DNA from: Nautiliaceae bacterium
GTDB taxonomy: Bacteria > Campylobacterota > Campylobacteria > Campylobacterales > Nautiliaceae
DNA: 64,000 nucleotides
NCBI GenBank assembly: GCA_039831155.1
Contig: JBDONT010000009.1
Location: 1 to 64,000 of the forward strand
Reading direction: 5' to 3'
Shown here: positions 1 to 14,061 of the stretch, one piece after another
Position numbering within the stretch: the first letter of the stretch is position 1
Layout: each line of letters begins with the position of its first letter
Position numbers and translations under genes: made by a program
The notes under the pieces: generated by a model
What the model was told of the DNA's origin: nothing
The model's input: only the letters and a program-made list of their open reading frames with translations
Database searches by the model: none

Positions 1-35
1 GTCGCAATCCCCTTAAATCGGGTCGGTGTTTCAAT
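1..35 (-). CRISPR. Leader-proximal CRISPR repeat (array presumably continues left of the window); transcribed orientation ATTGAAACACCGACCCGATTTAAGGGGATTGCGAC
   Basis: GC-richer 35-mer with CCC-GATTTAA-GGG hairpin followed by a 3' ATTGCGAC handle typical of type III-associated repeats; adjoins an AT-rich leader and cas1. Only one copy is visible. Confidence 0.8.
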
Positions 36-245
36 AGTCCTAAATTTCGGACTTTTGAAAGCGAATATTAAATTAATATTAAAAATTTTTAATGCGACTT
101 TTTGCGACAAAATACCTAAATTTCGGGTTTTCAAGGAACTTTTTTAAATTCGGCAAAAAATGCTAAAATTGTACGAAATTTATAAAAAAAGCAATATTTT
201 GCCCGATTTAAAATATATTAATATTATACCAAAAAGGAAGAAAAA
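36..245 (-). promoter_or_regulatory. CRISPR leader / divergent cas1 promoter region
   Basis: AT-rich non-coding 210 bp between repeat and cas1 start; contains direct and inverted repeats. Confidence 0.7.
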
Positions 246-1094
246 TTGAAAGATTTATTTATAACTCGCCCTGTTAAAATATCCAGAGATGCTAAAAGTT
301 TAAAAATAGAAGAAGGAAACTTTAAAAAAATTCCCGTTTCTTTGATAAGAAGCGTTTATATTTTTGGAAATGCGGAATTAAACAACAGTGCAAGAAATTT
401 ATTGTTAGAATATTCAAAACCTATTTATCTTTTTTCTTCAAAAGGAGAGTTTAGGGGGATTATTCATAATGCGAAATTAAAAAGCAATTATAAAAACAGA
501 ATTTTGCAGTATAAAAACATAGATAACTTAGATATCGCAAAATTTATTGTAAAAAAGAAAATCGAAACAATAGAGCACTATATAAAAAGGTCGTTAAACA
601 GATATAAAGAAAAACTTGAAAGTGCAGAAAAATTAAATGAAATTTTAGGAGTTGAGGGGAGTTGCAGTAGATATATGTTTGAAAAGATAAAAGATGACCT
701 TGCAAAAGCAGGTATAGAATTTAAAGGCAGAGAGTTTAGACCCGTTAAAGACAGAGTGAATTCTCTTTTGAGTTTTTCGTATTCCCTTTATTATATGTTT
801 TTGCATACCATTATTTTAGAAGAAGGTTTTGATCCGTATATCGGGTTCTTGCATAAAAAAAGGGGCACTCATATGGCTTTTGTAAGCGATGTTATGGAAG
901 GGTATAGGGTTTATCTTAGTGCTTTTGTAGTTAAAATTTTGAAAAAAGGAATAATGAAAGATGAAGATTTTAAAGACGGGATTTTTTTAAACTATGAAGG
1001 GAAAAAGAAGTTTATAAGTTACTATTTGGATTTTATAAAAATTCTTGATAATTCCTATTTTCTTGAAGAGATAAAAACTAAATTAAACGATTAG
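246..1094 (+). CDS. cas1: CRISPR-associated endonuclease Cas1
   Basis: ILGVEG, NSLLSFSY, GFDPYIGFLH, SDVME motifs (catalytic E/H/D-E); next to CRISPR repeat. Confidence 0.95.
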   Translation: MKDLFITRPVKISRDAKSLKIEEGNFKKIPVSLIRSVYIFGNAELNNSARNLLLEYSKPIYLFSSKGEFRGIIHNAKLKSNYKNRILQYKNIDNLDIAKFIVKKKIETIEHYIKRSLNRYKEKLESAEKLNEILGVEGSCSRYMFEKIKDDLAKAGIEFKGREFRPVKDRVNSLLSFSYSLYYMFLHTIILEEGFDPYIGFLHKKRGTHMAFVSDVMEGYRVYLSAFVVKILKKGIMKDEDFKDGIFLNYEGKKKFISYYLDFIKILDNSYFLEEIKTKLND

Positions 1095-2187
1095 TTATGA
1101 AGGTTTTGTCTAAGTTGCCATTTATTAAGAGTTCGTTTATATCTTTTCCATATTTTGCATCCCAGTTTAAAAACTTCACATTTACGTCATATTCTCTTGC
1201 TTTTTTGGCAAGGTTTAAGCTTCCTTGAAGACCGGCTTTATCTTTATCAAATGCTAAAATTATGGTTTTTCCCGTAAAATATGAAAAATTTATAGGGTTA
1301 AAGCTTCCGATTCCCTCAACTCCCACTACATTGATTTTTTTTAGTGAGAGTGCGTCGATATGACCTTCTGTGAAATAGAAAGTATCGAATTTTTTAAGTT
1401 TATTTAGTGTTAGTGGATATGGGAGTGGATTTAAAAATCTTTTGTTTGACATTTCAAGTTCTTTAAATTTTCCGGGGTATATGTTTCTGAATCTAAGAGC
1501 CGTTAGTAAATTTGAATGTAAATCAAAAGACGGTATTACCGTAAATGAAGAGAAACTGAATTTGAATTTTCCTTTGTGTAATATCCCGAATTGATTTAGG
1601 TATTTATAATCAAAAAGGTCTAAAAGTTTATCCGTTAAATTAAAAGTGTCTTCTTTTGATAAAAAGCCTATGTTTTTGAAATAAGTGATTTTTCTATTTA
1701 GATAATAAGCGTTTTTTAGAGTTTGGTCGGTTTTTAGAGAGAAGCTATAAATATAGGAGATAATGGTTTGAAATTTTTCTTCTAAATCAAGATATTTAAA
1801 GTTTTTTATATTTTCGCTAAGAGAGTAAATTTTTTGCTTTTCGGGGACTTTTAGAGGTTTTAGGATTATTTTTATTTTAATTTTTGTGGATTGATTATTT
1901 GATGGTACTTTATAGTTTTCTTCATAACCTTTTAAGAGATTAAAAATATCTTTATTGCTAAGCCCTCTAAATTCTTTGAGGTATGTCCAGATAGGGATAA
2001 TTTCTCCACATTTGTTTTTTCTGTTGCATATGATGATTGGTTTTAGTTCTGTTTTGTTTGGAATATATGCTTCTTTTTTGTGGCAAAAAGGACATCTTAA
2101 ATGATAATATGTAGCACGTTTTTTGGGTTCTAATTCCGGAAGTAAAAGTTCTATATCAATATTTTGAAAAAGTTTATTTAGATCCAT
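1078..2187 (-). CDS. DnaG-like primase: N-terminal Zn finger plus TOPRIM domain, no helicase
   Basis: CPFC...CNRKNKC Zn ligands; FTEGHIDALS, AFDKDKAG (DxD) and KDINELL TOPRIM primase motifs. Confidence 0.85.
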   Translation of the reverse strand: MDLNKLFQNIDIELLLPELEPKKRATYYHLRCPFCHKKEAYIPNKTELKPIIICNRKNKCGEIIPIWTYLKEFRGLSNKDIFNLLKGYEENYKVPSNNQSTKIKIKIILKPLKVPEKQKIYSLSENIKNFKYLDLEEKFQTIISYIYSFSLKTDQTLKNAYYLNRKITYFKNIGFLSKEDTFNLTDKLLDLFDYKYLNQFGILHKGKFKFSFSSFTVIPSFDLHSNLLTALRFRNIYPGKFKELEMSNKRFLNPLPYPLTLNKLKKFDTFYFTEGHIDALSLKKINVVGVEGIGSFNPINFSYFTGKTIILAFDKDKAGLQGSLNLAKKAREYDVNVKFLNWDAKYGKDINELLINGNLDKTFITNRLI

Positions 2188-2194
2188 AGAGACT

Positions 2195-2220
2195 CTTTTT
2201 TGTATAATTATACAAAAAAG
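2195..2220. promoter_or_regulatory. Perfect 26-bp palindrome containing TATAAT on both strands (putative bidirectional promoter for primase and cas2 genes)
   Basis: CTTTTTTGTATAATTATACAAAAAAG equals its own reverse complement; occupies most of the 41-bp gap between divergent start codons. Confidence 0.75.
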
Positions 2221-2228
2221 GATAAAAA

Positions 2229-2474
2229 TTGCGTTTTGTTGTTGCGTATGATGTAGAAGATGATAGAAAAAGGGTAAAAATTCAAAAGTTTATTTCATCT
2301 TTTAGCGATGATTTTCAAAAATCGGTGTATGAAATTGATGTGAAAAAATCTCAAATTAAAGAGATTTTTAAATTTTTAAATGAAATCTGTGAAGGAGATG
2401 ATAAATTTTTAATATTTCCGGTTATTGAAAGTTTCAGTTTCGGTAAGAAAAACAGAGTGGAGTTTATTATATGA
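2229..2474 (+). CDS. cas2: CRISPR-associated endoribonuclease Cas2 (copy 1)
   Basis: VVAYDVEDDRKRVKI and QKSVYE motifs, 81 aa. Confidence 0.9.
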   Translation: MRFVVAYDVEDDRKRVKIQKFISSFSDDFQKSVYEIDVKKSQIKEIFKFLNEICEGDDKFLIFPVIESFSFGKKNRVEFII

Positions 2475-2719
2475 ATTTAATAATTTCATATGACATCAGT
2501 GATGAGAAAAGATTAAGAAAGGTTGCTAAATATTTAGAAAAAGTTGGTCTTAGAGTTCAGTATTCTGTTTTTTTGTTTCCAAATCCTAAAAAGGAACATT
2601 TACAAAAAGTTATAAGGGATTTAGTTAAAATGATAGGGGAAGAAGATAGTATAAAAGTGTATAAATTCAGTATGAAATATGCTATTTCGAATTATGAAAT
2701 AGAAAAATTTATAGTATAG
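2471..2719 (+). CDS. cas2: CRISPR-associated endoribonuclease Cas2 (copy 2)
   Basis: ISYDISDEKRLRKVAKYLE and RVQYSVF motifs; ATGA overlap with copy 1. Confidence 0.95.
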   Translation: MNLIISYDISDEKRLRKVAKYLEKVGLRVQYSVFLFPNPKKEHLQKVIRDLVKMIGEEDSIKVYKFSMKYAISNYEIEKFIV

Positions 2720-2727
2720 GGATAAAA

Positions 2728-3081
2728 ATGGATGATATTTTTGTAAAAATAGATGAAATGTTTGAAAACGAAAATGTGGCTAAAGGGATTTTGAATGAGC
2801 TTAGAAATATTAAATTTGTTTTGACATCGGGAAGAGAATTTCAAAAAGAAGAAAAAAGGAAATTAAACAAAGCCTATTATAAGTTTTATTATGAGTTTAG
2901 AGAAAGAATGAAAGAAAGACCAAGAGAAGGGTATTTTCCAGAATTTGAAATAGATGGGAAAACATATGCCATTAATAAAAACGGACTTTTGTATGAAAAA
3001 ACTTCTAATAAAGTTTTGCCAAAATCAGAAGCGTTTAAAATTTATGAAAAGATATTTTATGAAGGATATTTTATAATGTGA
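2728..3081 (+). CDS. Hypothetical protein co-transcribed with cas2-cas2
   Basis: 117-aa ORF 8 bp after cas2 with AGGGA RBS; no motif recognised. Confidence 0.75.
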   Translation: MDDIFVKIDEMFENENVAKGILNELRNIKFVLTSGREFQKEEKRKLNKAYYKFYYEFRERMKERPREGYFPEFEIDGKTYAINKNGLLYEKTSNKVLPKSEAFKIYEKIFYEGYFIM

Positions 3082-3129
3082 CGTTTTTTGTCGTAAAAAT
3101 TTATTATTATTTTGGAAAAAAGGATTGAT

Positions 3130-3507
3130 ATGAAAAGAATGTTTTTGATTTTTTCTCATAAATTAACTGATGAGCAGATAAAAGATGCAAAAGGAAACTT
3201 GGGTATTGAGGAGTTTGTATATTTGCCGGAAAATCTTCAAAAAATTTGGTCGAATATCCCACCGGAAATTGAAGATATAAAGCCGTTGCTTGAAGATATT
3301 AAGCAGTTTTTAAGAGAAAACGCAAATAGTGGCGATGTTGTTTTGATTCAGGGGGATTTTGGAGCTGTTGTTGGGATGGTTGAGTTTGTAAGAAATTGGC
3401 TAATCCCTATTTATGCCACTACGAAGAGAGTATCAAAAGAGATAGAAAAAGATGGTAAAATTGTAAAGGTTAGCGAATTTAAGCACGTAAGATTTAGGAA
3501 ATATTAA
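3130..3507 (+). CDS. csx20: CRISPR-associated protein Csx20 (putative cyclic oligoadenylate ring nuclease)
   Basis: MFLIFSHKLT..QIKDA, WSNIPP, LIQGDFG, YATTKR, FKHVRFRKY motifs; ATG at 3130 has AAGGA RBS (track starts at TTG 3112). Confidence 0.85.
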   Translation: MKRMFLIFSHKLTDEQIKDAKGNLGIEEFVYLPENLQKIWSNIPPEIEDIKPLLEDIKQFLRENANSGDVVLIQGDFGAVVGMVEFVRNWLIPIYATTKRVSKEIEKDGKIVKVSEFKHVRFRKY

Positions 3508-3516
3508 GGAGATGGA

Positions 3517-4668
3517 ATGAAATTAATTGCAACACTTGGAACCACACCAGCAAATCATACTCATACTTATTATTTAGATAATAAAGAGTATAGAGAAGTT
3601 TTTTCATTTTTTGCTTTAAAGAAGCATTTTAATATTAAAGATAAAGATGTAATTATTGTAGGAACTTCTGGGACTAAACAATTTCAGGAAAAATTTATTA
3701 AAAATTTTGAATTTGTAGAAGTTGATGCGGATAATTTTGAAGATGTTTTTGCTAAAACTTTACACTCGATAGAAAATAACAGTATTGTCGATTTAACCCA
3801 GTCTTTTAAAAGTCTTGGATTTGGGGCTTTGCTTTCTTATAGTTTTTCAAAAAGCATAGGAAACAAAGTAAAAGATATTTATTATGCACAGGTTCAGAAT
3901 AATTGTAGTCCTGGTGGTAGTGAATGTAAATTTGTTTTTCAGTCTCTTAAAAAATATGAGGATATTGTTGAGCTTGTGAGGGAGATAAGTATTTTTATTG
4001 ATTCTTGGTATGTGTTGAATCAGGAAAAAGATGAGGAATTTAAAGTAATTCATAATAATTTACTTGAAATGTCCCAGATGTTGAGCGTGAATGATTTGGA
4101 TATTGAAGATAATGTTAAGAATTTAAAAAACGAAATAGATAGACTATTAAATAAAAAAGAGTATGCATACTTATATGAACATCTTAAAAAGTTACAAGAA
4201 GAAATTTTAAAAATTGATAATGCATTAGATACTTTTGAGCATAAAAAACTGATTAAATTTAGTAGGTTATATTTAGAAAAAAATTTTTTGCTTCAATCTC
4301 TTACTATGCTTTTTGAGGCTGCCAGTGCTTATTTGGAATTTAAGACAAAAGATTATTTTGAGTGTAAAAAGGGAGAGTTTAAAATTAAAAAAGGGGATGA
4401 TAAATATAAATTTAGGAATTGTTTAAAGTCAAAAATTTCGACAGTAAGATACGGGAAAAAAGTACCTGGTTATTTATTTAAGTTTATCGACATAGAAAAT
4501 TTAGAGAATTTTGCTAAACATTTAGTAAAAGTTGATGAACTTAGAAACAATTCAGCTCATGCGTTTATTAACGGAAAAAAAGAGGAATTTGAAAATAAAA
4601 AAAGCAAGTTTAAAGAAGATATAGAAAAAGAGTTAAAATATTTTGAAGAAATATTGTTAAGAAAATAA
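3517..4668 (+). CDS. csx1: Csx1/TM1812-like CARF-HEPN ribonuclease (type III effector)
   Basis: N-terminal IATLG, IIVGT, VDLTQSFKS (DxTxx CARF motif); C-terminal RNNSAH HEPN Rx4H. Confidence 0.8.
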   Translation: MKLIATLGTTPANHTHTYYLDNKEYREVFSFFALKKHFNIKDKDVIIVGTSGTKQFQEKFIKNFEFVEVDADNFEDVFAKTLHSIENNSIVDLTQSFKSLGFGALLSYSFSKSIGNKVKDIYYAQVQNNCSPGGSECKFVFQSLKKYEDIVELVREISIFIDSWYVLNQEKDEEFKVIHNNLLEMSQMLSVNDLDIEDNVKNLKNEIDRLLNKKEYAYLYEHLKKLQEEILKIDNALDTFEHKKLIKFSRLYLEKNFLLQSLTMLFEAASAYLEFKTKDYFECKKGEFKIKKGDDKYKFRNCLKSKISTVRYGKKVPGYLFKFIDIENLENFAKHLVKVDELRNNSAHAFINGKKEEFENKKSKFKEDIEKELKYFEEILLRK

Positions 4669-5022
4669 ATGAAAGCAATAGTTATAAGATATAAAACCCT
4701 TTCAAATCCAAAAAAATTAAAAGAGTATGATTTAGTGTTGCCTCAAGAAATGGGAAAAAGCGGTAATCATATTTTGGAGCAAGAGATAAAAGAAATTCAA
4801 AAATGGGTAAATGAAAATAATATAAAAGAGATTTTTATAACTAATTTGTCTAAAAAAGAAGCCGAGAAACTTCAAAAAAAGCTTGGTATAGACGTAGAGA
4901 TAATAAAAAACAATAAAAATATTTCAGATAAAATATTTGCTCTTTTATTGCTTTTAAAAAGACTTTCCATAAAAGGAACTTTAAAAGTAGGACTATTAGA
5001 AATTCCGTGTCAGTCTGGATAA
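4669..5022 (+). CDS. Hypothetical protein abutting csx1 (C-terminus possibly truncated)
   Basis: ATG immediately after csx1 stop; 117 aa; ends close to the IS end fragment. Confidence 0.65.
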   Translation: MKAIVIRYKTLSNPKKLKEYDLVLPQEMGKSGNHILEQEIKEIQKWVNENNIKEIFITNLSKKEAEKLQKKLGIDVEIIKNNKNISDKIFALLLLLKRLSIKGTLKVGLLEIPCQSG

Positions 5023-5229
5023 AATACTAAAAATCTTTGTAGCTGTTGGGTATGGCCTTATATCCCTACGGATAAATCCGAGGGCTTTACGGCGGTTTTT
5101 TGGTAATTCTATATCTCCACCTTTTAAGCTATCATCAACGCGACTCCCAAAAAGGTATATTTGGGCATCGTTTAAAACTTTATGAACCTGGGCTTTTATG
5201 ATTTCAATTTCTTTTGATGTTAGTCTCAA
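4996..5229 (-). pseudogene. MNT (minimal nucleotidyltransferase) antitoxin, interrupted after GGDI(E)L
   Basis: MRLT..EI..IK, IYLFGSRVDDSLKGGDI motif; remainder of the ORF reads into IS-end sequence. Confidence 0.8.
5055..5106 (-). mobile_element. Solitary IS200/IS605-family (IS608-like) left end with TTAC target
   Basis: Minus strand TTAC|CAAAAAACCGCCGT-AAAG-CCCTCGGATTTATCCGTAGGG-ATATAAGGC: target tetranucleotide, AAAG guide and bulged hairpin as in the IS608 left end; no tnpA/tnpB or right end seen. Confidence 0.75.
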
Positions 5230-5660
5230 TTTTTTCCTTTATTTTGAATTAGATAATTTATAGCTTCTATTTTTTCGTCATTATTGTAAGGATAGTCGTG
5301 GGCGATGCTGTTTCTGACTGCTCTAAATTCTGCCCATTTATCGATATCTACTATGTTTTTTTTGCTTAATTCTTTTAGTATTTCTAAAAAATTTTTATCT
5401 TGAACGGGATAATTTGGGTATTCTAAATATTTTCTGAAGATTTTTGCTACTAAAATATCTTTGAGTTTTGAAAATCTAAAAGCCAAAACATCCAGTTTGT
5501 CTTTTTGGGAAGTAGTGAAATTTTCTAATTTATCATAATCGATAGGATATAGTTTTTTTAACTCGGTTAAGACCTCTTTTAATCTGTTTATGTGAATATC
5601 ACACTCTTTAAGGTAAAAAATCAATCTATTTTTTGTAGTCATTATTTGCCTTTTACACAA
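5226..5660 (-). CDS. HEPN-domain toxin of MNT-HEPN pair, probably C-terminally truncated
   Basis: AFRFSKL.D, RNSIAHDYP (Rx4H); ends a few residues after NYLIQN, overlapping the MNT start; likely start ATG 5642. Confidence 0.75.
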   Translation of the reverse strand: MCKRQIMTTKNRLIFYLKECDIHINRLKEVLTELKKLYPIDYDKLENFTTSQKDKLDVLAFRFSKLKDILVAKIFRKYLEYPNYPVQDKNFLEILKELSKKNIVDIDKWAEFRAVRNSIAHDYPYNNDEKIEAINYLIQNKGKN

Positions 5661-5782
5661 AGTTTCATTGTTTAAGTTATATTTAAAAATTTTCTAAACG
5701 AAAAATCTCTTATTTAAAAGTGGCTTTTTTAAAATCTAAAAGAGTGTTATAATTTAGGTTAAAAAATTTTTAAGAGGAAAGA

Positions 5783-6829
5783 ATGAAAATTTTACATACT
5801 TCGGATTTACACATAGGGCATAATGTAAACGGAATAGACAGAACGGATGAATTTAAAAGACTTTTTGAGTGGTTTTATGAGACGATAGAGAGAAAAAAAG
5901 TTGATGTTTTGATTATCAGTGGAGATGTTTTTGATGTTTATTATCCTTCAAACGAAGCGATTAAGCTTTATTATGATTTTTTGGTATCTCTTAAAAACAG
6001 ACTTCAAAAAGTAATAGTAATAGGCGGCAATCACGACTCTCCCAAACACTTAAGAGCCCCTAAGGATGTTTTAAAATATCTTAATATAGTGGTTGTGAGT
6101 GGAAGTGAGGACGATTATTTGGAGGTTGTGGAGTTTGATGATTTTGAGGTTGTTTGTGTGCCTTATTTGAGAGAGGGGATTTTAAAAAAATACGATAGTG
6201 ATTTTAAAGAAGCGTTTAGGAAAATATACGAAAGAAAAAGTCGCAAAAAATCGATAGCTACCGGGCATTTTAGTGTTTACGGAAGTGATTTGGGAGGGAG
6301 TGAGAGAGATATTTATATAGGCAAAATAGAAGCCGTCCCAAGCAGTGTTTTTGAGGAGTATGATTATGTGGCTTTGGGGCATATTCACAAACCTCAAGAG
6401 ATAAAAAAAGGTATAGTTTACAGTGGTTCTCCTTTGCAGCTGGGGTTTAATGAGAATTATCAAAAAAAGGTTGTTTTGCTTGATAGCGAAAGTATGGAAT
6501 ATGAGTTTTTGGATGTACCGAAATTTAGGGAGTTTTATTCTTTAACGGGTAATTTTGAGGAGGTTTTAAAAGAAATAGAAGATTTAAAAGACGCTTTTGT
6601 TGAGATTGAATTAAATGAGATTGTCTCTTCTTTTGATTTGGAGAAGTTAAGAGAAAATGAAACCCTTGATATAGTAAAAATAAAAATGCCTATAAAAATA
6701 GCAAAAACCGAAATGAATATAAAAAACGTAGCTCCTAAGGATTTTATAAAAGAGATTTTTAAAAATGAGGATGATTTGGAAGAGATTTTAAAAATAATAG
6801 ACGAAATTAGGAGAGAAGATGAAGATTAA
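5783..6829 (+). CDS. sbcD: Exonuclease SbcCD subunit D
   Basis: MKILHTSDLHIG, SGDVFD, GNHDS, GHF, ALGHIH, YSGSP metallophosphoesterase motifs. Confidence 0.95.
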   Translation: MKILHTSDLHIGHNVNGIDRTDEFKRLFEWFYETIERKKVDVLIISGDVFDVYYPSNEAIKLYYDFLVSLKNRLQKVIVIGGNHDSPKHLRAPKDVLKYLNIVVVSGSEDDYLEVVEFDDFEVVCVPYLREGILKKYDSDFKEAFRKIYERKSRKKSIATGHFSVYGSDLGGSERDIYIGKIEAVPSSVFEEYDYVALGHIHKPQEIKKGIVYSGSPLQLGFNENYQKKVVLLDSESMEYEFLDVPKFREFYSLTGNFEEVLKEIEDLKDAFVEIELNEIVSSFDLEKLRENETLDIVKIKMPIKIAKTEMNIKNVAPKDFIKEIFKNEDDLEEILKIIDEIRREDED

Positions 6830-9410
6830 GAGGCTTTATTTGGAGAATGTTAACTCTTTTTACGGTGGGTTTGAGATTGATTTTGATAAGTTTGATGGGC
6901 TTTTTTTAATCTCCGGTCCTACCGGCAGTGGTAAAACCACCATAATAGACGCTATTTTGGCAGCTCTTTACAATAAAACCCCACGGCTTAAATCTTCTAA
7001 GTATCTTTTAAACAAACACGCTAAAAATGGAAAAATAATACTTGATTTTGAAATAAAAGGAGAAGTTTATACTATAACCTGGGAAGCTAAGCTTATAAGA
7101 AGAGGCAAAGAGATTGAGTTAAAAAGAAATCTTTATAAGGGAGATAGCCATATAGCGGATTCAAAAGCTATAAAAGAGGAACTTTTAAAACTTATAAAAC
7201 TTGATTTTAACCAGTTTACCAAATCCGTAGTACTGGCTCAAGGTGAGTTTGACGCGTTTTTGAGTGCCGATTCGAATGAGAAAATGAGTGTGCTTGAAAA
7301 GATTTTGAATGTGGAGGAGTTTGAGAAAATTTCTGTTAGGGTTTATAACAAAACCAAAGAGTTAAAAGAAAAAGCGAAAAATATTTTGGATGAGATAAAC
7401 GGTTTAAGGGTCGATGATTTGGATAAATTGTCAAAAGAGTTTGAATCAAAAAGTGAGGAGCTAAAAAGAGTTGATAAAGAGTTATCGGAAATTGACAAAA
7501 CGATTTTGCTTATAAAAGAAAAAGAAAAACTCTTAAAGGATAAAGGAATTTTAAGTGAAGAGATAGAAGAGATAGTTAAAGAGCTTGAAAGTGTGGATTT
7601 TGACGAAGAGGAGTTTTTAGTAAAAAAAGAGGAGTTTTTAAAGAGAAAAAAAGAGTATGAAAAAGAGTGTAAAATCCTTGATGAAGAGATTTTAAAAGAG
7701 AGTAAACTCCAACATCTGAATAAAAACTTAAGCTTAAAAACTAAAGATATCGATTCGGTTTTTTCTCAAATTAAGAAGTTAAAAAAAGAACTTTCTTTTT
7801 TGGAGGCTAAGAAAGATGATTTAAAAAGTGAGATTGAAAAAACAGATTTGAAATTTCATAAAGACAAAGCTCTTGAAAATTTTGACGAGGTAAGTGAGAT
7901 ATTTAGTGAAATCTCTTTTTTAAGGGATGAGTATTTAAAAACCGAAAAAGGAATAAAAGAGCTTAATTTAAAAAAAGAATCCAAAATAAAAGAGTTTTTT
8001 GAACTAAAAAAGAGTCTTGATGAGTTGAAAAAAGAGTTTGAATATTTAGAAGCCAAAACGCTTGTATTAAAGTATGAAAAAGAGAGAAGTGTTTTAAAAG
8101 AAAATACCCCCTGTCCTTTGTGTGGAAATAAAGAACACCCTTTTGTAAAAGACCCTCCCTCAATTGAAAAAGACGTAAAAAAAAGATATGAAAACCTAAA
8201 AAAAACGATAGAGGAAAAAGAGGCTTTTTTAAACGCCGTTGATACGGAAATTAAAAATATAGAAGCGATTTTAAAAAATGAAAACGAAAAACTTTTTGAG
8301 ATTAAAAAAGAGGACGAAAAGTTAAAAGAAAAACTTGATAAATTTTCTTTAAAAGAAGATGAAATAGAACTTTTGCAAAAGAAAAGGGCTCAAAACGAAC
8401 TTTTACAAAAAGAAAAAAACAGACTTGAAAAAGAACTTTTAAAAACGGAGTCGGCTTTTGAGGAAAAAAAAGGGGTTTTAAAAGAAAAAGAGGAATTTTT
8501 AAAAGATTTAAAACTTCAAAAAGAGACTCTTTTAAAAGAGATGGAAAAAATAGATTTAAACATAAAAAATCCTTCTTTGAAAAAAGAGTCGATAAAAAAA
8601 GAGTTTGAAAAAACGGAAAAAGAGTTTTTCAAGTATCAACAAGATATAGAAAAACTCAAAAATAAAATAACTGTGCTTGAGAGTAAAAAGAGCGAAAAAG
8701 AGAAACGTTTAAGAGAGATTGAAAACCGTTTAAAAGAGATAGTCGTAAAAGATGAGGATGTTTTTTCAAAAAAAGAGGAGTTGAGTTTGAAAAAAGACTC
8801 TTTAAATCAGCAACTCGGATATCTGAAAAAAGAGATAGAGGAGATTAAAAGGGATTTTCAAAAAAAAGAGACTCTTTTAAAAGAGTTTGACGAACTTAAC
8901 GGACGTTTAAACCTCTATGAAAAAATAAACTCCAAAATAGGAAGTGCTGACGGAAAGTCGTTTAAAAGAATAGCTATTAATTATATGATGGACTCTTTGC
9001 TTTTTATGGCTAATGAAGAGCTTTTTAAACTTAGTGAGGGCAGGTATGTTTTGGAGAAGTCGGAAAATTTGGAAAAGCTTGATTTGTTTGTAACGGATAC
9101 GTTTTATTCCAGCAAAAGAGAAGTGAATACTTTAAGTGGCGGAGAGAAGTTTTTGGTCTCTTTGGCTTTGTCTTTTGGGCTTAGTAATATGTTAAGAGAC
9201 AGCGTTAAGATTGAAAATATGTTTTTGGATGAAGGGTTTGGGAGTTTGGATGAGAGAAGTTTGAATAGGGCGTTGGAAGTTTTGATGAGTGCGAATAAAG
9301 GAAGTATAGGTATAATCTCTCACGTTGAAAAATTAAAAGACGAAATCGATAAAAAGATTTTGGTGAAGAAAAAATCGGGAGGTAAAAGTTTTATTGAATT
9401 TATTGTTTAA
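6819..9410 (+). CDS. sbcC: Exonuclease SbcCD subunit C (Rad50-like ATPase)
   Basis: GPTGSGKT Walker A, LAQGEF, CPLCG Zn hook, LSGGE, FLDEGFGSLD, ISH; long coiled coil. Confidence 0.95.
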   Translation: MKIKRLYLENVNSFYGGFEIDFDKFDGLFLISGPTGSGKTTIIDAILAALYNKTPRLKSSKYLLNKHAKNGKIILDFEIKGEVYTITWEAKLIRRGKEIELKRNLYKGDSHIADSKAIKEELLKLIKLDFNQFTKSVVLAQGEFDAFLSADSNEKMSVLEKILNVEEFEKISVRVYNKTKELKEKAKNILDEINGLRVDDLDKLSKEFESKSEELKRVDKELSEIDKTILLIKEKEKLLKDKGILSEEIEEIVKELESVDFDEEEFLVKKEEFLKRKKEYEKECKILDEEILKESKLQHLNKNLSLKTKDIDSVFSQIKKLKKELSFLEAKKDDLKSEIEKTDLKFHKDKALENFDEVSEIFSEISFLRDEYLKTEKGIKELNLKKESKIKEFFELKKSLDELKKEFEYLEAKTLVLKYEKERSVLKENTPCPLCGNKEHPFVKDPPSIEKDVKKRYENLKKTIEEKEAFLNAVDTEIKNIEAILKNENEKLFEIKKEDEKLKEKLDKFSLKEDEIELLQKKRAQNELLQKEKNRLEKELLKTESAFEEKKGVLKEKEEFLKDLKLQKETLLKEMEKIDLNIKNPSLKKESIKKEFEKTEKEFFKYQQDIEKLKNKITVLESKKSEKEKRLREIENRLKEIVVKDEDVFSKKEELSLKKDSLNQQLGYLKKEIEEIKRDFQKKETLLKEFDELNGRLNLYEKINSKIGSADGKSFKRIAINYMMDSLLFMANEELFKLSEGRYVLEKSENLEKLDLFVTDTFYSSKREVNTLSGGEKFLVSLALSFGLSNMLRDSVKIENMFLDEGFGSLDERSLNRALEVLMSANKGSIGIISHVEKLKDEIDKKILVKKKSGGKSFIEFIV

Positions 9411-13379: not shown

Positions 13380-14061
13380 AGGGCTTGAGGTAAAATACGG
13401 TGTGATTGAAGCCGTTAGAGGGATTGATTTTGAGGTGGGGGTTGGAGAGATTGTGACTATTATAGGAAGCAACGGAGCCGGGAAAACTTCTACATTAAAC
13501 GCTATTATGAATTTAGTTCAGAAAAAAGGGGAGGTTGAGTTTTTTGAGAGTGACATCTCAAAACTCCCTACCGATAAGATAGTAAAAAGAGGACTTGCTT
13601 TAGTACCGGAGGGTAGGAAAATTTTTATAAATTTAACGGTTGATGAAAATCTGGATATCGGAGCTTACAACAACGAAGAAAACAAAGACGAATTAAAAGA
13701 GAAAATGTATGAGCTTTTTCCAAGACTTAAAGACAAAAAAAATCAGTTCGGAATGAATTTAAGCGGGGGAGAGCAGCAGATGTTGGCAATAGCTAGGGCT
13801 TTGATGAGTGAGCCTAAAATGCTTATGCTTGATGAGCCTTCTTTAGGGCTTGCCCCGAAAATCGTAATGGATGTTTTTGAAATTATAAACAGATTAAGAG
13901 AAGATGGGATTACTATTTTGCTTATCGAGCAAAACGCCTCTTTAGCTTTAAAAAATTCCGATTACGGGTATGTAATGGAAAACGGTAAAATCGTTTTAAA
14001 AGACAAATCAAGCAATCTTTTAAATAATGAAGAAGTTATTAAGAAATATTTGGGTGGTTAG
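13366..14061 (+). CDS. livF: ABC ATP-binding protein LivF
   Basis: GSNGAGKT, VPEGR, LSGGEQQMLAIARAL, LDEPSLGLAP. Confidence 0.95.
   Translation: MLRVKGLEVKYGVIEAVRGIDFEVGVGEIVTIIGSNGAGKTSTLNAIMNLVQKKGEVEFFESDISKLPTDKIVKRGLALVPEGRKIFINLTVDENLDIGAYNNEENKDELKEKMYELFPRLKDKKNQFGMNLSGGEQQMLAIARALMSEPKMLMLDEPSLGLAPKIVMDVFEIINRLREDGITILLIEQNASLALKNSDYGYVMENGKIVLKDKSSNLLNNEEVIKKYLGG

Follow-up and report, generated by a model that had tools for sequence, protein, structure and literature searches.

The 64,000-nucleotide stretch analyzed here (the window) comes from a Nautiliaceae bacterium (GenBank assembly GCA_039831155.1, contig JBDONT010000009.1, positions 1 to 64,000), and at its very start it holds a CRISPR adaptation module that has a primase gene of the DnaG type between its integrase genes. 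The start of the window is the start of the contig, and its first 35 bases are one CRISPR repeat, the leader-proximal terminal repeat of an array, cut by the contig end (1–35). An AT-rich segment that probably serves as the leader (36–245) lies between this repeat and cas1 (246–1094, forward strand, 282 aa; Cas_Cas1 at 8.6e-52, TIGR00287 at 1.6e-47). The primase gene follows on the reverse strand (1078–2187, 369 aa), and after it come, all on the forward strand, cas2a (2229–2474, 81 aa; CRISPR_Cas2 at 5.3e-12), cas2b (2471–2719, 82 aa; CRISPR_Cas2 at 3e-18), an open reading frame (ORF) for a 117-aa protein without family, the companion of the primase, which we call ORF117 (2728–3081), and the type III accessory genes csx20 and csx1. 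An earlier reading of the same DNA, made from the letters alone (the original prediction), had described the primase gene as lying antisense between cas1 and two cas2 genes, with a 17-bp overlap on one side and a 41-bp gap on the other, and the six-frame ORF list confirms these coordinates: cas1 and the primase gene are convergent and share positions 1078–1094, and the primase start (2187) and the cas2a start (2229) are divergent with 41 bp between them. The association of such a primase with the adaptation module is real, conserved and rare, as the comparisons below show.

The gap between the two divergent starts (2188–2228) is filled by a 26-bp palindrome (2195–2220) centered on a palindromic −10-like element, and it may act as a divergent control region; a promoter scan gave a result not above that of shuffled sequences, and Rfam had no match in window positions 1–6000. 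A sequence similar to the palindrome separates another divergent gene pair on contig C21 of the same assembly (G000:C21:5245-5302).

The product of 1078–2187 is, judged from profile searches and a fold model, a member of the DnaG-type primase superfamily with predicted primase activity, and it is not the housekeeping DnaG. Its domain map comprises a zinc ribbon (residues ~27–65), a linker (~88–120) and an RNA-polymerase domain with the TOPRIM fold (~120–365). In Pfam, Toprim_2 matched residues 272–354 (2.1e-8); the PHROG family "DNA primase" matched residues 6–355 (1.2e-17); and the language-model Atlas placed the protein in a neighborhood of stand-alone viral primases. The original prediction of an intact zinc-finger and TOPRIM primase with a catalytic glutamate and a DxD motif is borne out by an alignment of 28 members, in which the four cysteines of the zinc ribbon (C32, C35, C54 and C60), E274, D314/D316 and D349 are invariant, as are R232/R234/K242/R250, which fall in the segment that aligns with the basic motif of DnaG. 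In a profile search of PDB sequences, the matches were DnaG primases and T7 gp4, all weak (best E 1.5e-3), with two other matches at chance level (ribosomal protein S27E, E 0.51, and a 118-residue "putative protein," E 0.61); in the same search, the motif region of Aquifex DnaG was aligned to the invariant Arg/Lys segment of the family. Profile-profile comparison with hhalign matched the family to a 796-aa primase-DnaB helicase relative (P0098; domains DNAG_N, Toprim and DnaB_C) over 318 columns (probability 99.5%, E 3e-23) and to the DnaG encoded by the same genome over 280 columns (probability 81.8%, E 1.1e-5), the latter alignment being collinear through the zinc-binding and RNA-polymerase domains. 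Since this whole architecture aligns with DnaG-type primases, we regard the protein as a primase rather than a mere TOPRIM protein.

Fold comparison points the same way. An AlphaFold model built from 28 sequences has a mean pLDDT of 88.7, a disordered linker at ~91–100 and a zinc-ribbon-like set of strands at residues 27–65. Foldseek returned 35 PDB matches at E ≤0.001, and each one listed is a DnaG-type primase or akin to one. The top match is the zinc-binding plus RNA-polymerase domain structure of Aquifex DnaG (2au3, 2.9e-11, full-length); the others include the catalytic cores of B. subtilis, S. aureus, E. coli, P. aeruginosa and M. tuberculosis DnaG as well as T4 gp61, T7 gp4 and Twinkle, and the best matches by identifier are 2au3, 5guj, 8dvf_H, 1eqn and 1nui. 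Against DnaG catalytic cores, the TM score was 0.47–0.55 (normalized by target) over 267–289 columns; for the zinc-binding domain, 1d0q also matched weakly (E 2.6e-2). TOPRIM-only proteins (a small TOPRIM protein, RNase M5 and RecR) came out at E ≥6.7e-3 over at most 125 columns.

These comparisons bear on an alternative in which the protein has lost primer synthesis and instead cuts nucleic acids as a TOPRIM nuclease or binds them, for example to trim prespacers in place of Cas4 or DnaQ. TOPRIM domains do act as nucleases in OLD, RNase M5 and AriB, two database members of the family carry the source name "ribonuclease M5," and Pfam and NCBIfam searches found no Cas4 or DnaQ gene in the adaptation module. 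However, the protein keeps the full zinc-binding and polymerase architecture of a primase, including the N-terminal subdomain and the invariant basic residues that TOPRIM nucleases lack, and in the fold comparison TOPRIM-only nucleases score far below primases; we therefore consider a nuclease role unlikely.

The window primase shares with bacterial DnaG, the primase half of T7 gp4 and T4 gp61 the zinc-binding and RNA-polymerase/TOPRIM domains, the acidic glutamate and DxD residues and the basic motif. It differs from them in having neither a C-terminal helicase-binding domain nor a fused helicase: the protein stops ~15 residues past the TOPRIM domain, so that a helicase-binding domain has no room. 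It also departs from the Pfam CHC2 pattern in having a Cys4 ribbon (CxxC...Cx5C). The absence of the C-terminal region of housekeeping DnaG had been predicted as well, and it is plain from the numbers: TIGR01391 (dnaG) gives 29.6 bits against a cut-off of 283.6, with residues 262–356 alone matching, whereas the housekeeping dnaG of this genome lies on a separate contig (G000:C34), encodes 540 aa rather than 369 and scores 428 bits. Searches of Pfam, NCBIfam, PHROGs and PADLOC assigned the protein to no AEP or PrimPol family. Together with the DnaG fold seen in both the profile and the fold comparisons, this agrees with the earlier statement that it is unrelated in fold to the AEP-type CRISPR-associated primase-polymerases (CAPPs).

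We then looked at where this family occurs. A search of 5.8 billion proteins identified 29 clusters of the primase family, all of 234–392 aa, and a filter-free search of 1.84 billion representatives returned 317 relatives, three of which represent the close family. Pattern scans yielded 12 genome loci and 80 metagenome loci, in which ORFs were called and searched with the window proteins. The close clade comprises 27 loci (L004-L008, L016-L034, L040, L058 and L059), some of them one contig held twice; they form 16 groups at 90% identity, which is an upper bound, as fragments may belong together. In 26 of the 27 loci, cas1, cas2a, cas2b or ORF117 lies within 5 kb of the primase gene, and in the lone exception, L025, the primase gene is at the contig edge. 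This linkage is maintained down to ~45% identity between close-clade primases. Among the other loci with a match, 1 of 63 had a Cas1 match (L074, E 8.8e-4). There (L074:117-7138), a 789-aa primase-helicase relative is divergent from a type II locus (a 1071-aa Cas9-like ORF, cas1 and cas2) and close to ParA-like genes, and this is probably adjacency on a mobile element, distinct from the association in the window. The recurrence of close homologs beside cas1 and cas2, which the original prediction had asked about, is thus the rule. Cas1 proteins tell the same story from the other side: in a set of genomes with one per species, all five intact Cas1 proteins at least 64% identical to that of the window have the primase adjacent, and the sixth Cas1 in this range, which has none beside it, is a pseudogene on a 2.3-kb contig.

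Two gene orders were observed. In the order of the window, which we term order A, cas1 and the primase gene share 17–46 bp at their 3′ ends, and cas2a-cas2b-ORF117 diverge from the primase start. In order B (L026, L029 and probably L059), the primase gene is divergent from ORF117-cas2a-cas1-cas2b. Order-B proteins are 29–37% identical to order-A proteins for Cas1 and 45–53% identical for the primase, and modules of the order-B type (cas2-cas1-cas2) that have neither primase nor ORF117 are also found in Nautiliaceae genomes. Because there are two gene orders, diverged Cas1 proteins and primase-free modules of the order-B type, the primase and ORF117 travel as a pair that has joined two integrase lineages. 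One contig from a DNA run (X3) joins window position 1084 to 2733, omitting the primase gene and both cas2 genes; the shorter side of this joint is 21 letters at 90% likeness, and the contig may come from another organism or a repeat.

The original prediction had also stated that no integrase or helicase gene accompanies the primase. This is true of the window, where the ORF list, Pfam and NCBIfam showed neither in positions 1–9400, but it does not extend to all relatives: in two of them, the primase gene and cas1 are separated by an inserted candidate defence system of two genes (L022:1224-4393 and L025:984-3271). One gene encodes an SF1B helicase that carries a TBP-TOTE domain at its C terminus (PADLOC PDC-M16A, 2.5e-225), the other a TPR/DUF7017 protein (TPR-CSD, 1.1e-38). 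We considered this RecD-like helicase as a partner of the primase and rejected it, since together with its TPR neighbor it matches PDC-M16 and TBP-TOTE and hence belongs to a separate inserted system. The NCBIfam model for CAPP type B is matched, in its C-terminal part, by the C terminus of this helicase (9.3e-6), so that CAPP_B, too, may carry a TBP-like domain at its end. In another relative, a DarTG-like toxin-antitoxin pair, DarT (1.8e-45) and a Macro-domain protein, directly follows ORF117 (L030:7645-9006).

The cas-linked primases share a single origin. In a maximum-likelihood tree of 47 stand-alone proteins, built from near-full-length sequences (fragments shorter than 330 aa, fusions longer than 520 aa and duplicate sequences were excluded), the 14 cas-linked sequences form one clade with an SH-aLRT support of 96. 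The neighboring clades contain Sulfurimonas, Campylobacter, Helicobacter and Nautiliales proteins that are 30–38% identical. The genes around these outgroup primases are those of plasmid-like DNA (RecT/Bet, a PD-(D/E)XK nuclease, ArdC-like, methylase, helicase and beta-clamp genes), and the annotated examples are "toprim domain-containing proteins" on Campylobacterota plasmids of 70–170 kb. The nearest relatives without cas genes, from Nitrosophilus labii pHRV44, Campylobacter and Malaciobacter plasmids, have the same stand-alone size and are 32–36% identical over the catalytic core; they differ in their cas-free surroundings of Bet/RecT, PD-(D/E)XK nuclease and ArdC-like genes and in forming a separate clade of the tree. 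Most likely, then, the primase descends from one that served in the replication or establishment of a plasmid and was later co-opted. It had been proposed that a location of the closest homologs on plasmids or prophages without cas genes would speak against a CRISPR function, and here the plasmid-borne, cas-free relatives proved to be the distant ones, at 30–38% identity. The cas-linked primases are also under purifying selection: in pairs with unsaturated synonymous divergence, the ratio of nonsynonymous to synonymous substitution rates (dN/dS) was 0.038–0.118 for the primase, compared with 0.046–0.094 for cas1, and it was 0.019–0.095 for ORF117.

Given its plasmid ancestry and its antisense orientation in the adaptation operon, it could still be argued that the gene has no CRISPR function and is what remains of a mobile element, selfish or in decay. 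Several observations make this highly improbable. The reading frame is intact in all full-length copies and the dN/dS values are 0.04–0.12; the monophyletic clade has diverged to ~45% identity and yet stays linked to cas genes; and no integrase, repeats or other element genes were found beside the primase in the window. One locus, L008, is flanked by the housekeeping genes tlyA, gpsA, trkA, gatB and ilvA. Finally, close members of the family were absent from phage records, viral contigs and plasmid records; phage records gave no match at all, and the matches in viral contigs were partial ones at ≤34% identity and one 30-residue zinc-ribbon match at 53%.

The arrays next to these modules add to the plasmid connection. 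The 35-nt repeat of the window occurs in arrays of 11–26 copies beside cas1 in the near-identical loci L016, L005 and L021, at ~190–210 bp from cas1 to the first repeat, as in the window; degenerate repeats mark the far end of the array in L005 and L021. Given the repeat at 1–35 and the arrays ~200 bp from cas1 in relatives, the module lies directly at the leader. The window repeat is the only copy in its assembly, where tandem-repeat and k-mer scans found no assembled array; it is found deep in contigs of RNA libraries, linked to different spacers. The k-mer array scan did pick up ~6 short direct repeats spaced 55–95 bp apart on another contig of the assembly (G000:C2:11753-12150). Of the 116 unique spacers from arrays beside these modules, three match plasmid-like vent contigs, L043 and L045, at 94–97% identity (L043:2584-2617 and 13812-13843; L045:12391-12426 and 13453-13484). 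All three are from the trailer end of the L021 array (1680-2440), and if the array is read from the leader on the cas1 side, all matches are antisense to predicted mRNAs, as type III targeting requires. Both contigs carry an outgroup (non-cas) primase, RecT and a PD-(D/E)XK nuclease; therefore, the system targets the kind of element from which its primase seems derived. Comparison of the L005 array with plasmids gave a single repeat-like match.

On the one hand, this connection could mean that the protein serves defence or regulation rather than adaptation, either as a plasmid-derived primase that disturbs the replication of related plasmids or as a sensor of foreign single-stranded DNA (ssDNA) that sits in the cas locus by chance. 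Outside cas loci, its closest relatives are primases of plasmids, the 3 matching spacers among 116 point to plasmid-like contigs bearing such a primase, and other defence genes (DarT-Macro and PDC-M16) are inserted at these loci. In addition, the PADLOC model "RTasDnaG-like," associated with defence reverse transcriptases, matches residues 183–358 (8.5e-8), so DnaG-like domains have been recruited by other defence systems as well. On the other hand, the primase has kept its place between or beside cas1 and cas2 in both gene orders and with both Cas1 lineages, and ORF117 is always there too, whereas unlinked defence genes differ from locus to locus. A defence role outside adaptation consequently seems to us quite unlikely.

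The CRISPR system served by the module appears to be of type III-A. This assignment comes from L016, whose primase is 97% identical to that of the window and which has csm1-csm5 beyond the array, taken together with csx20 and csx1; in the window's own assembly, where the contig ends in the first repeat, the csm-like genes seen were diverged ones on contig C19. In the window, csx20, of a ring-nuclease family (3112–3507, forward strand; NF040559 at 1.6e-48), is followed by the gene for a Csx1/Csm6-type effector with CARF and HEPN domains (3517–4668, forward strand; PADLOC Csx1/Csm6 at 4.4e-24 and a weak Csx1_CARF match). Csx20 degrades cA4, according to the relevant part of a preprint (bioRxiv 10.1101/2024.09.24.614671). 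Past these type III accessory genes, two small overlapping ORFs on the reverse strand (4996–5660), one of which encodes 144 aa with a weak NTase_sub_bind match (8.1e-5), look like a HEPN/MNT-type toxin-antitoxin pair, and the ORFs at 5783–9410 look, from their motifs, like sbcD/sbcC. ORFs of corresponding sizes recur at this place in L016 and L007 (348 + 863 aa and 344 + 839 aa), matched by size and place alone.

The integrase genes are themselves well conserved. Cas1 keeps the Glu, His and Asp/Glu catalytic motifs in both of its lineages, and cas2a and cas2b are two conserved paralog lineages, with Y7, D8 and other residues of Cas2a invariant in 13 sequences. Two distinct Cas2 paralogs, encoded in tandem, are present in every related Nautiliaceae module, including those without the primase (cas1-246aa-cas2-cas2 and cas2-cas1-cas2), which suggests that they may form a Cas2 heterodimer. 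In L005 (3117-5165 and 6136-8672, the same as record G172:C111), a further adaptation module, made up of cas1, a 246-aa protein without family and two cas2 genes, is found 4 kb away from the one with the primase, near WYL-domain and Csa3-like proteins. In the window genome, too, there is a second cas1, located at the end of contig C11.

ORF117 was found in every related locus in which its position is visible. Its profile search of the 5.8 billion proteins gave 26 clusters, several of which share the length of their longest contig with a primase cluster. No match to ORF117 was found in Pfam, NCBIfam, PHROGs or PADLOC; the PDB profile search stayed at E ≥0.14, and the Atlas had no usable match. 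In fold searches, the best Foldseek match was at E 1.6 and the best match of the wide VIA-align search was at Z 3.9, with 0 of 48,161 chains reaching Z 5, a result that does not by itself establish a new fold.

Taken together, these data support the view that a distinct DnaG-fold primase is associated with CRISPR in this group, as the original prediction suggested: the linkage to cas genes is conserved, and the cas-linked proteins form a single clade. We infer its primase activity, its physical contacts and the adaptation step that it would serve. Our preferred interpretation, to which we assign a probability of roughly 0.55, is that this helicase-independent primase, together with ORF117, is a dedicated accessory of the type III-A adaptation module and primes ssDNA of invaders for the production of duplex prespacers. 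The zinc ribbon and the RNA-polymerase domain would bind invader ssDNA, be it a conjugative or rolling-circle strand, the genome of an ssDNA phage or a product of nucleases and helicases. The primase would lay a short primer on the bound strand, and a host polymerase would extend it. The resulting duplex would then be captured as a prespacer by a Cas1-Cas2a-Cas2b integrase and inserted at the leader-proximal repeat, with ORF117 possibly acting as an adaptor or regulator that tethers or regulates the primase at the integrase. Conjugative plasmids use stand-alone primases to prime the complementary strand of incoming ssDNA. We favor priming on invader ssDNA because the protein descends from a plasmid primase, has kept its template-binding and catalytic residues, has no helicase module and occupies a fixed place at the integrase genes.

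Several points weigh against this interpretation. In all loci the primase gene runs opposite to cas1 and cas2, so they are not transcribed together. Parts of the primase gene, of cas2b and of csx20-csx1 are covered by contigs from RNA libraries with a sequence identical to the window, which is a hint of expression; such contigs prove neither transcription nor strand. The family has a narrow spread: its close members occur in 6 of the 25 Nautiliaceae species genomes sampled, counting that of the window, and 276 genomes from the remaining families of the order had none. The RNA primers that DnaG-type primases make are not extended by these enzymes, so a host polymerase is needed, and the ORF list, Pfam and NCBIfam showed no polymerase or ligase gene linked to the module. 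Moreover, the gaps left after spacer integration already offer 3′-OH ends, and Cas1-Cas2 systems generally run without a dedicated primase; thus, the need for one is not obvious.

Some of the same points bear on another possibility, namely that the primase acts after integration, by priming or filling the single-stranded repeat gaps or by restarting replication through the integration intermediate. Here, too, the 3′-OH ends of the staggered integration product are ready for a polymerase, gap-filling or strand-displacement activity is not known for DnaG-type enzymes, and the lack of a linked polymerase or ligase gene counts against such a step. The position of the module directly at the leader and first repeat fits a post-integration role. 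In the passages of PMC8211822 on this subject, gap filling after integration is one of three possible roles listed for CRISPR-linked primase-polymerases. On balance, we regard a post-integration role as rather unlikely.

Among known systems, the closest parallel to an invader-priming accessory is that of the AEP-type CAPPs (Zabrady et al. 2021, PMC8211822). As described in the relevant sections of that paper, CAPPs have an operon-like tie to type III cas1-cas2, an origin from mobile-element primases and a proposed part in prespacer synthesis or gap repair, all of which resemble what we see here. They differ from the window primase in having the AEP fold instead of the DnaG/TOPRIM fold. The window primase, unlike a CAPP, would not be expected from its domains to have polymerase or strand-displacement activity; it is antisense to cas1 and cas2, comes with the small partner ORF117 and is restricted to Nautiliaceae. 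By analogy, it would be a functional counterpart of the AEP-type CAPPs. The known CRISPR-linked priming enzymes also include the AEP PrimPols of cluster 227 in Shah et al. 2018 (PMC6546367) and the reverse transcriptases that prime DNA synthesis and are linked to type III cas1-cas2 (PMC10415136). The reverse transcriptases, like the predicted window primase, are priming enzymes joined to type III adaptation, but they have a different fold, are often fused to Cas1 and give spacers from RNA; the window module has neither a reverse transcriptase nor a fusion.

The original prediction knew of no characterization of such a primase, and this part stands: no characterized DnaG-type CRISPR primase was found in the literature searched, and the term "toprim" does not occur in the retrieved text of Shah et al. 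2018 (PMC6546367). The association itself may be less new. In the legend to Fig. 6B of Altae-Tran et al. 2023 (PMC10910872), "Toprim" and the "SWIM" zinc finger are among the new adaptation-module associations. This entry resembles the window in that a Toprim-domain gene is linked to adaptation modules, with a zinc-finger (SWIM) abbreviation adjacent in the legend; it does not figure in the main-text discussion, and the passages on it give no characterization. Judged from the legend alone, the family of the window may thus already be catalogued, uncharacterized, among the 188 unnamed modules of that study.

A broader proposal, which we put forward tentatively, is that the primase and ORF117 are a portable two-gene cassette that can be plugged into unrelated Cas1-Cas2 integrases, giving a type III system a route from invader ssDNA to spacers through priming of the incoming strand. 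Type III adaptation would then have a general need for primer synthesis, to which AEP PrimPols, reverse transcriptases and, as the third, this cassette would be convergent answers. If this were true, the primer or the template-recognition site of the primase might set the start of the prespacer and so act as a selector similar to a protospacer adjacent motif (PAM) in a PAM-less system.

The finding bears on the question of where type III systems obtain their prespacers and why primases and reverse transcriptases have repeatedly been recruited to type III cas1-cas2. That a DnaG fold was recruited independently of the AEP fold of the CAPPs argues for selection on primer synthesis as such and not on a side activity of one enzyme family. 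The system is compact, and its set of five proteins (Cas1, Cas2a, Cas2b, the primase and ORF117) suits testing in vitro; the tandem Cas2 paralogs and the fold-less ORF117 are further handles on it. For the organisms themselves, the data suggest a third, independent coupling of primer synthesis to CRISPR memory formation, in a small group of deep-sea vent bacteria, in which a plasmid gene would have been taken over by an immune system that targets that kind of plasmid.

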